From positions 690,001 to 722,000 of the forward strand of contig JBDHVY010000001.1 of NCBI GenBank assembly GCA_039809905.1: 32,000 bases of DNA. Reading direction: 5' to 3'. A model generated the notes under the pieces. The model was not told the origin of the DNA. It saw nothing but the letters and a program-made list of their open reading frames with translations, and ran no database searches. Of this stretch, positions 1,974 through 2,035 are shown piece by piece. This DNA comes from Candidatus Babelota bacterium (GTDB lineage Bacteria; Babelota; Babeliae; Babelales; Vermiphilaceae). The translations under genes and the position numbers were made by a program. Each line of letters opens with the position of its first letter. Position 1 is the stretch's first letter.

Positions 1974-2035
1974 CCCCATATTACATTTCATTTTTCATGG
2001 GGACCCCGTTATAAGAGGTTCTTTAAGAGTTTCAA
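1974..2035 (-). promoter_or_regulatory. Promoter plus GGGGTCCCCA stem-loop motif (copy A) upstream of the GNAT gene
   Basis: Minus strand reads TTGAAA-16 nt-TATAAC, directly followed by GGGGTCCCCAT-N17-ATGGGG. The stem-loop ends 17 nt before the ATG. Confidence 0.45.

Follow-up and report, generated by a model that had tools for sequence, protein, structure and literature searches.

Repeat copies in the window

The window analysed here is a stretch of 32,000 nt with a GC content of 34% from a Candidatus Babelota soil bacterium. Four short GC-rich hairpins lie in it upstream of the genes for a GNAT acetyltransferase, ribosomal protein S6 (rpsF), PolA and ribosomal protein L27 (rpmA), and the nature of these hairpins, which an initial annotation had read either as a promoter and leader module or as a protein-binding site, is the subject of this report. 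All four were found where that annotation had placed them, with only the trivial difference that its labels C and D are exchanged relative to its list of coordinates. They share the pattern GGGG-(W/AT)-CCCCA-N19-TGGGG, of which about 0.02 occurrences would be expected by chance, and the distance from CCCCA to TGGGG is exactly 19 nt in every copy. The impression that such sequence is rare in this AT-rich DNA is borne out by counts in the window and in shuffled sequence: there are five matches to GGGG-N0-2-CCCC against 0.03 in the shuffles, and five to CCCCA-N15-25-TGGGG against 0.02. The window contains seven repeat units in total, and their coordinates, sequences and scores are given in Table 1.

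Copy A is a solo unit of the form GGGG-T-(CCCCATG..TATGGGG, 29 nt) in the spacer between truA and the GNAT gene, and its 3′ end lies 17 nt from the GNAT ATG. The T/C-rich left box of the family described below, here CTCTTATAAC, adjoins it at 2008-2017. Copy B, upstream of rpsF, is the right-hand unit, GGGG-T-(CCCCAATTGC..GCGAAATTGGGG), of what is, judged by alignment, a pair whose left member has decayed. Its apparent upstream GGGG is the 3′ arm of the decayed left unit, which can be aligned position by position to the intact left units CCCCAGCTT(T)GT..TCTTAGCCGGGG found at the same site in the relatives L077, L078 and L082 (L numbers denote loci of the comparison DNA). The site of copy B is an insertion hotspot between the conserved rpsF-upstream blocks CAATAAAGC and AGCTTTATAG. 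The rpmA copy, GGGGG-T-(CCCCAGCC..GGCTGGGG), is located in a divergent spacer directly 5′ of a conserved promoter-like block, TTGACT-N17-CATTAT (25200-25228). Copy E has the same geometry as copies A to D, matches positions 16-48 of the covariance model and sits between the convergent rho gene (26821-28440) and the gene at 28501-30303; it begins 8 nt past the rho stop codon and is the only copy with a T tail.

The polA copy, GGGG-AT-(CCCCAA..TTGGGG), lies downstream of a canonical terminator (18885-18913) and stops 22 nt short of the polA ATG (19374). This ATG, rather than the start of the open reading frame (ORF) at 19203, is the polA start. The 57 codons upstream of it (19203-19373) run through the repeat unit, across whose hairpin the frame merely stays open, and the match to the PolA family model sets in at residue 7 of the protein translated from 19374. 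Public gene calls carry a PolA of 964 aa (L059, gene at 1414), and the exact 907-aa form gave no database match.

Table 1. Repeat units of the window, with their scores in the covariance model R1
Feature	Position	Strand	Sequence	Score (bits)
Copy A, upstream of the GNAT gene	1974-2007	minus	GGGGTCCCCAT-N17-ATGGGG; sense strand cttataacGGGGTCCCCATGAAAAATGAAATGTAATATGGGGttaaaat	59.1
Copy B, upstream of rpsF	8522-8555	minus	GGGGTCCCCAATT-N13-AATTGGGG; sense strand cttcaccGGGGTCCCCAATTGCAGGCTCTGCGAAATTGGGGtattagc	46
Decayed left-hand unit of copy B	8556-8580	minus	sense strand ACTCCCAATGTTGTTCATCTTCACC	
Degenerate head-to-head pair	9310-9377		centre GGG-TA-CCC (GGGTACCC); (CCCAATC..GTTGGG)TA(CCCATT..AATGGG)TTAAAT	20.7 (9310-9358, minus, E 0.013); 17.4 (9331-9377, plus)
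Copy C, upstream of polA	19317-19351	plus	GGGGATCCCCAA-N17-TTGGGG; sense strand cttaataGGGGATCCCCAACCGGTATATAATAAAGATTGGGGctataat	34
Copy D, upstream of rpmA	25157-25191	plus	GGGGGTCCCCAGCC-N13-GGCTGGGG; sense strand tttatagGGGGTCCCCAGCCGTGGCGTAGCATAGGCTGGGGcttagaa	48.1
Copy E, after rho	28449-28477		29-nt hairpin CCCCATTC..GAATGGGG, then CGCTTTTTTT; no 5′ GGGG	21

A dispersed repeat family in Babeliales

The comparison DNA amounts to ~720 kb and consists of the window and Babeliales relatives (Dependentiae/TM6), which were seen as pieces of ~20 kb. It includes contigs that encode an identical L27 or S6 protein, a locus from a metagenome-assembled genome whose PolA is 83% identical (L011), the rpsF loci of three relatives with long contigs and 80 metagenome rpsF loci with an S6 identity from 88% down to 49%. 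The close S6 homologues are annotated as Candidatus Babeliales. A covariance model, R1, was built from ten copies of 50 nt, and matches of at least 20 bits were counted. The model has 44 matches in 302 kb of near relatives, a density over these sampled pieces of 14.6 per 100 kb, and three matches in 402 kb of distant relatives. Intergenic DNA accounts for 15% of the sequence and holds 38 of the 44 matches (p = 3e-25). As judged from this distribution, the family appears to be specific to one genus- or family-level clade of the amoeba-associated Candidatus Babeliales (Dependentiae).

The common unit is a GC-clamped, imperfect palindrome of ~35-50 nt, up to ~57 nt, and consists of a T/C-rich box, GGGG (or GGG), a linker of 1-2 nt, CCCC-R, a variable stem extension of 2-4 bp, a purine-rich loop and, at the 3′ end, T-GGGG followed by TTAAA. 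It can be written as (T/C-rich box TTCTYWAAWY)-GGGG-W-(CCCC-R-stem, purine-rich loop, stem-T-GGGG)-TTAAA. The loops had been described as unrelated, which holds within the window and not across the family, where they follow roughly the purine-rich consensus GAAAYGAAAYGGA, to which copy A also conforms. The GGGG (or GGG) 5′ of the hairpin is invariant even in solo copies that have no partner, which suggests that it belongs to the repeat itself in the way that GTAG belongs to the repetitive extragenic palindromic (REP) sequences of Escherichia coli.

Units may stand alone, form head-to-head pairs around a common GGGGWCCCC centre, cluster, or be nested with other repeats. Pairs are found at L011 18893-18949, which reads CCCCAGC..GCCGGGG-T-CCCCGTG..CATGGGG, at L060 6681-6735, at L080 921-976 and, in degenerate form, in the window (Table 1). 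That GGGG precedes each hairpin is accounted for by the ability of head-to-head units to overlap on the 9-nt palindrome GGGGWCCCC. The same hairpins recur at unrelated places. A non-orthologous copy in L011 (18915-18950) shares 86% identity with copy A across 36 nt, and a hairpin subfamily, CCCCGTGTG..AACATGGGG, is present at at least five non-orthologous sites, which comprise positions upstream of rpsF (L082), downstream of polA (L011 18906), upstream of rpmA (L003 347), in the rpsF-rpsR spacer (L083 2868) and beside other genes (L085, L086). At L011 16599-16679, a different palindrome is nested inside the loop of a unit. That two of the four hairpins in the window precede ribosomal protein genes, to which the initial annotation had drawn attention, is a coincidence, as the genes next to copies also include ftsZ, a GNAT gene, polA, ftsY, rnhB and rho.

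Clustering is most pronounced upstream of rpmA in L003, a contig that encodes an identical L27. Alongside a head-to-head pair and a unit of the GGGTACCC type, the region at 300-720 contains one member of a different palindrome family, one unit that breaks off after GGGGTCC and a tandem of two units of the rpmA-copy type, spaced ~90 nt apart. Compared with the single unit in the same region of the window, this arrangement shows rapid local turnover. Copies within coding sequence are confined to two of ~25 independent sites, both in L067, where a pair of units lies in frame in the linker between the N and G domains of ftsY (LSLPHFATSSLGSPADKLGL, ~11 residues replaced by 20) and the C-terminal tail of RNase HII is specified by a further unit at the 3′ end of rnhB. 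Units are thus occasionally accommodated in frame where the protein segment is dispensable.

Conservation of the stem

The recurrence of a hairpin whose stem extensions vary and remain complementary, as the initial annotation had proposed, is confirmed by the alignment of 91 distinct rows of the family. In this alignment 95.7% of the stem cells pair, and the covariation score is 0.393, compared with 0.122 in shuffles, none of which (0/500) reaches it; the alignment was fitted to the model, and these counts lean towards structure for that reason. Changes on both sides of the stem are seen at six of the eight pairs, and pairing falls to ~50% or less in all slid controls. The hairpin is kept up by compensatory change.

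At stem pair 5, 46 rows have A-U, 28 have G-U and one has another combination, and A-C is almost never seen. The wobble therefore occurs only on the unit's own strand, which fits a function of the single strand, either as single-stranded DNA during propagation or as RNA. The pattern could also merely reflect a small number of subfamily founders. The stems of copies A to D have only 6-8 bp and their loops 13-17 nt. Folded as single sequences in windows of 61 nt, the hairpins form as drawn, with energies like those of shuffled sequence (z from +0.4 to -1.7), and thermodynamics alone is uninformative for them.

Presence and absence at orthologous sites

The units vary in presence between closely related loci. 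The truA-GNAT spacer contains a unit in the window, where it is 103 nt long, and in L068, where it is 82 nt long, and it is empty, with a length of 0-37 nt, in six of eight relatives (L060, L061, L067, L073, L075 and L086); the Shine-Dalgarno sequence is kept in filled and empty spacers alike. Upstream of rpmA, the contigs with an identical L27 have the same unit, an A-to-G (G-U) variant of it (L001), four to five clustered units (L003) or none (L004, L007/L008), and the TTGACT-N17-CATTAT block downstream of the unit is conserved throughout, with or without the hairpin. The region upstream of polA in L011 has no unit.

About half of the near relatives have a unit upstream of rpsF, located at three to four different positions. 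In the window, L081, L082 and L015 it is found 5′ of the conserved box AGCTTTATAGTTATAAT, in L068, L072 and L073 it is 3′ of this box, and in L086 it is ~240 nt upstream of rpsF. The region is empty in L061, L069, L075, L079 and others, and both rpsF-upstream units of L060 have decayed to AT-rich sequence. Retention at the orthologous position, by which a cis-regulatory leader can be recognized, was not found upstream of polA, the GNAT gene, rpmA or rpsF. Absence of the structure from the orthologous leaders of relatives had been named in advance as an outcome that would speak against a regulatory element, and the structure is indeed often absent at polA, truA-GNAT and rpmA.

Orientation and expression signals

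All four hairpins in the window are in the sense orientation to the downstream gene, as had been noted. When independent sites of solo copies are counted, with orthologues collapsed, the bias in orientation is a trend of 11 sense to 5 antisense copies and is not significant. Antisense copies are found in the rpsF-rpsR spacer (L069, L083), and other copies follow rpsR, lie between convergent genes or reside in coding DNA. The GC skew is positive over the whole window and the copies lie on both strands; in these four at least, orientation therefore goes with transcription rather than replication, and a replication-strand bias was dropped as its cause on the basis of the uniform skew.

The hexamers that abut the GGGG of copy A (TATAAC), the polA copy (TTAATA) and the rpmA copy (TTATAG) had been regarded as -10-like. 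They lack A2 or T6 of the -10 element, and none was called in a promoter scan of the window, which yielded no more promoter-like sites than shuffled sequence (50 vs 43.0 and 38 vs 42.7). A sigma-32 or other alternative promoter was considered and rejected, with CCCCAT present only in copy A and 27 nt separating it from the CTTGAAA of that copy. A terminator scan found canonical terminators in the window and called none of copies A to D, which have no T tail in either orientation.

The suggestion that the element is not a described one withstands comparison with Rfam, in which the window gave nothing at the gathering score and the copies nothing at E<=1. Literature searches by string and by topic found no description of it, and the searched genome papers on Babela, TM6 and Chromulinavorax make no mention of palindromic or intergenic repeats. 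No tRNA or tmRNA was found in the window. Integron attC sites and CRISPR were rejected as candidates because integrase and cas genes are lacking and the copies are not regularly spaced.

Interpretation

We regard the four hairpins as copies of a short selfish palindromic repeat, which belongs to an undescribed family resembling REPs and the Rickettsia palindromic elements (RPEs) and shows no sign of being a shared gene switch, and assign this reading a probability of about 0.8. The units would spread, or would once have spread, as selfish non-autonomous DNA, possibly through a single-stranded hairpin intermediate. By analogy with the recognition of REPs by transposases of the RAYT (REP-associated tyrosine transposase) or HUH type, one strand might be recognized together with the 5′ GGGG tetranucleotide. 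Units would persist where a hairpin that lacks a U-tract is harmless. A transcribed hairpin in a 5′ untranslated region (UTR) or between cistrons could incidentally shield the mRNA from exonucleases, as REPs do, which would be a side effect and not a common regulatory programme. It is possible that individual copies have been co-opted as 5′-UTR or intercistronic mRNA hairpins, which would not be the reason why the motif recurs.

Several observations weigh against the selfish-repeat interpretation. The relatives were sampled around the rpsF neighbourhood, and the densities are not genome-wide estimates. One rpsF-upstream site has kept its unit across lineages with 78-100% S6 identity, and the solo copies tend to be in sense orientation shortly before gene starts; both are compatible with some benefit to the host. 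The copies in the window are mutually divergent, with no sign of a recent burst. Target-site duplication is not clear, with 3.43 of 8 positions matching between a copy's own flanks and 3.21 between flanks of different copies (permutation p = 0.038), and no transposase or RAYT-like gene was present among the scanned proteins of the window, a scan that covers 32 kb. A broader version, in which the Dependentiae have a REP-like system whose RAYT-like or other enzyme is guided by GGGG to a strand-specific hairpin, solo copies have repeatedly been domesticated as 5′ modules and in-frame copies remodel proteins, is unlikely to hold in all its parts; the 5′ module would here consist of an AT-rich box, a GC discriminator and a 5′-terminal hairpin before housekeeping genes such as rpsF, ftsZ, rpmA and polA.

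The proposal that each copy is a portable promoter and leader, with a -10-like box, GGGG as the discriminator, a transcription start at CCCC and a 5′ stem-loop for stability or translation, draws on real features of the sequence. All four hairpins in the window and most solo copies in the relatives are directed towards a gene start at a distance of 5-120 nt, and the orientation of the former tracks the gene strand and not the uniformly positive skew. TATAAT abuts the GGGG upstream of ftsZ in L060 and in L015, as does TAAAAT in L068; copy A has TTGAAA 16 nt upstream of its TATAAC; the hairpins of copy A and of the ftsZ copy in L060 end ~10 nt before the Shine-Dalgarno sequence; and the wobble at pair 5 is G-U on the unit's own strand. 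However, the boxes in the window are defective, no common -35 element accompanies them, and the same box is found beside antisense copies (L069, L083, L116, L095), while in pairs it is the arm of the partner unit. Copies after convergent genes and inside ftsY and rnhB have no place in such a module, the promoter-like blocks of rpmA and rpsF are conserved in relatives that lack the hairpin, orthologous spacers are often without the structure and the 11:5 split in orientation is not significant. The proposal is accordingly improbable. Less probable still is a hairpin that serves the host at the RNA level in the manner of REPs, by blocking 3′-5′ exonucleases or acting as a processing site and so tuning the expression of neighbouring genes. 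Many copies do lie between co-directional genes (truA-GNAT, ftsA-ftsZ, rpsF-rpsR, and rpsF and the gene upstream of it), the hairpin forms in either orientation, compensatory change maintains stems at an orthologous site, and copy E, which has a T tail, stands at the 3′ end of rho. Nevertheless, units have decayed freely to AT-rich sequence in L060, orthologous spacers without the element are common, stems of 6-8 bp with loops of 13-17 nt fold with energies indistinguishable from those of shuffles (z from -0.5 to -1.7), and coding insertions and nesting are left unexplained.

An operator for a DNA-binding regulator with a regulon, composed of GGGGWCCCC and the distal TGGGG, can hardly be credited, even though the 9-bp palindrome is the best conserved part of the element and the GGGG boxes are 30 nt apart, about three helical turns. 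The palindrome is the common centre of head-to-head unit pairs, and the variants GGGTACCC, GGGTGCCC, GGGGCCCCC and GGGGATCCCC alter both its spacing and its sequence. The stems covary, for which an operator in duplex DNA has no need; units are also located in coding regions and at convergent gene ends, and presence varies among close relatives.

Other repeats and neighbouring features

The spacer downstream of rpsR (window 7400-7720) contains other GC-rich palindromic modules that are common to the relatives, and these genomes therefore have at least two more repeat families. The module GCGCTTAATCCTTCAAT (7505-7522) is 100% identical to a module of the repeat zone in L011 and recurs within long palindromes that L086 and L091 have upstream of rpsF, while CGCCAAGGCTACAAAGG (7546-7562) and CTTCGTTAACACTACGA (7695-7711) are members of the hairpin family CCTACTTCGCCAAGGCTACGAAGG. 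L011 has an inverted duplication of 356 nt (16455-16810 and 19058-19409) that is 96-97% complementary and consists almost entirely of repeat modules. It flanks two paralogous small membrane-anchored ORFs (17074-17703 and 18220-18825) and, from its arrangement, resembles either a composite mobile unit or the product of a rearrangement mediated by repeats.

The region ~60-170 nt upstream of rpsF (~8490-8640 in the window) has an architecture that is strongly conserved across Babeliales and is seen in most of the loci L060-L095. The hairpin GCAGAAAMCCTGGTATTTTMCAGGGTTTCTGC followed by TATT comes first and the blocks CAATAAAGC and AGCTTTATAGTTATAATTAACTTCC follow, with no match in Rfam. The hairpin is probably the terminator of the gene upstream of rpsF, and AGCTTTATAGTTATAATTAACTTCC is possibly the true promoter or leader of rpsF. 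Eight tandem paralogous small ORFs of 102-184 aa (2906-7291) stand between rpsR and truA in the window, without a match in Pfam or NCBIfam, and the number of small ORFs at this position varies from about two to nine among the relatives. Rho (26821-28440) is a protein of 539 aa that carries an N-terminal extension of ~120 residues before its Rho_N and RNA-binding domains.

A pattern scan of a viral collection gave 41 matches, mostly single, chance-like, located in GC-rich contigs and unconnected with Babeliales. One phage-like contig of 134 kb and ~60% GC (IMGVR_UViG_3300035696_000011) has four matches to GGGGWCCCCA-N19-TGGGG (L035, L036, L037 and L057). L035, L037 and L057 have stems of 10-13 bp with GGTC in their loops, the stem of L036 has 6 bp, and L043 and L053 are similar hairpins with long stems. 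By their sequences, the hairpins of this viral contig look like a separate and unrelated family whose common ends were imposed by the search pattern.

Significance and comparison with known systems

Dependentiae are a phylum of protist parasites that are mostly uncultured, and to our knowledge their non-coding DNA has hardly been examined. Under the selfish-repeat interpretation, the reduced genomes of Babeliales would be less free of selfish DNA than their gene content suggests. The repeats may serve as markers for strain typing and for spotting assembly errors, and they explain spurious gene calls such as the N-terminal extension of 57 residues that PolA acquires through the polA copy. For the scanning of genomes, the case indicates that a motif found upstream of unrelated genes and displaying apparent covariation can be a repeat family and not a regulon.

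The closest resemblance is to the REP sequences of proteobacteria and their composites, the bacterial interspersed mosaic elements (BIMEs) and the REPINs, which are mobilized by RAYT, an HUH Y1 transposase like those of the insertion sequences IS200/IS605. Both groups are imperfect palindromes of 30-40 nt that are GC-rich relative to the genome and nearly all extragenic, with a tetranucleotide 5′ of the hairpin that is GTAG in the REPs of E. coli and GGGG in the Babeliales family. Both are found as single units, inverted pairs and clusters, have a strand-specific mismatch or wobble in the stem and encode no protein. Paired units overlap on the 9-nt palindrome in the Babeliales family, whereas those of BIMEs are separated by a linker. 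Unlike REPs, the present units are occasionally coding, their host phylum is Dependentiae and the sequences are not similar. The family cannot be assigned to the REP-RAYT system proper, as the 32-kb window has no transposase and no target duplication is demonstrated.

The stabilizing 5′ stem-loops of the ompA type also consist of a hairpin near the presumed 5′ end of the mRNA and a few nt before the Shine-Dalgarno sequence, as in copy A and the ftsZ copy of L060. They are single, gene-specific and conserved with their gene, while the Babeliales family is multi-copy and variably present. The Correia elements of Neisseria, the QMITEs of Coxiella and other miniature transposable elements with inverted repeats (MITEs) nest and decay to REP-like stubs (PMC10969869). 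They share with the present units a short, non-autonomous and dispersed form, a frequent position just upstream of genes and, in some cases, promoter-like boxes. MITEs differ in having terminal inverted repeats that match insertion sequences and clear target-site duplications (TA for Correia), whereas the Babeliales units are much shorter and are themselves palindromes.

RPEs are palindromic elements of Rickettsia that lie in frame inside genes (PMC10969869). Like the family described here, they are selfish palindromes of AT-rich, reduced, obligate intracellular genomes that are found in frame at tolerant sites of essential genes, and an insertion that leaves the ORF intact, the mark of an RPE, is seen in both the ftsY linker and the rnhB tail of L067. 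RPEs are ~100-150 bp long and nearly half intragenic in some of their families, compared with ~35-57 nt for the Babeliales units. The two have no apparent sequence relationship, and size, host and the lack of an Rfam match set the present family apart from RPE-1 to RPE-10. It would thus be a second case, besides Rickettsia, in which essential proteins tolerate palindromic repeats, and if the Dependentiae do possess a REP-like system of the kind considered above, in-frame insertion would be a convergent parallel to the RPEs in another intracellular lineage.

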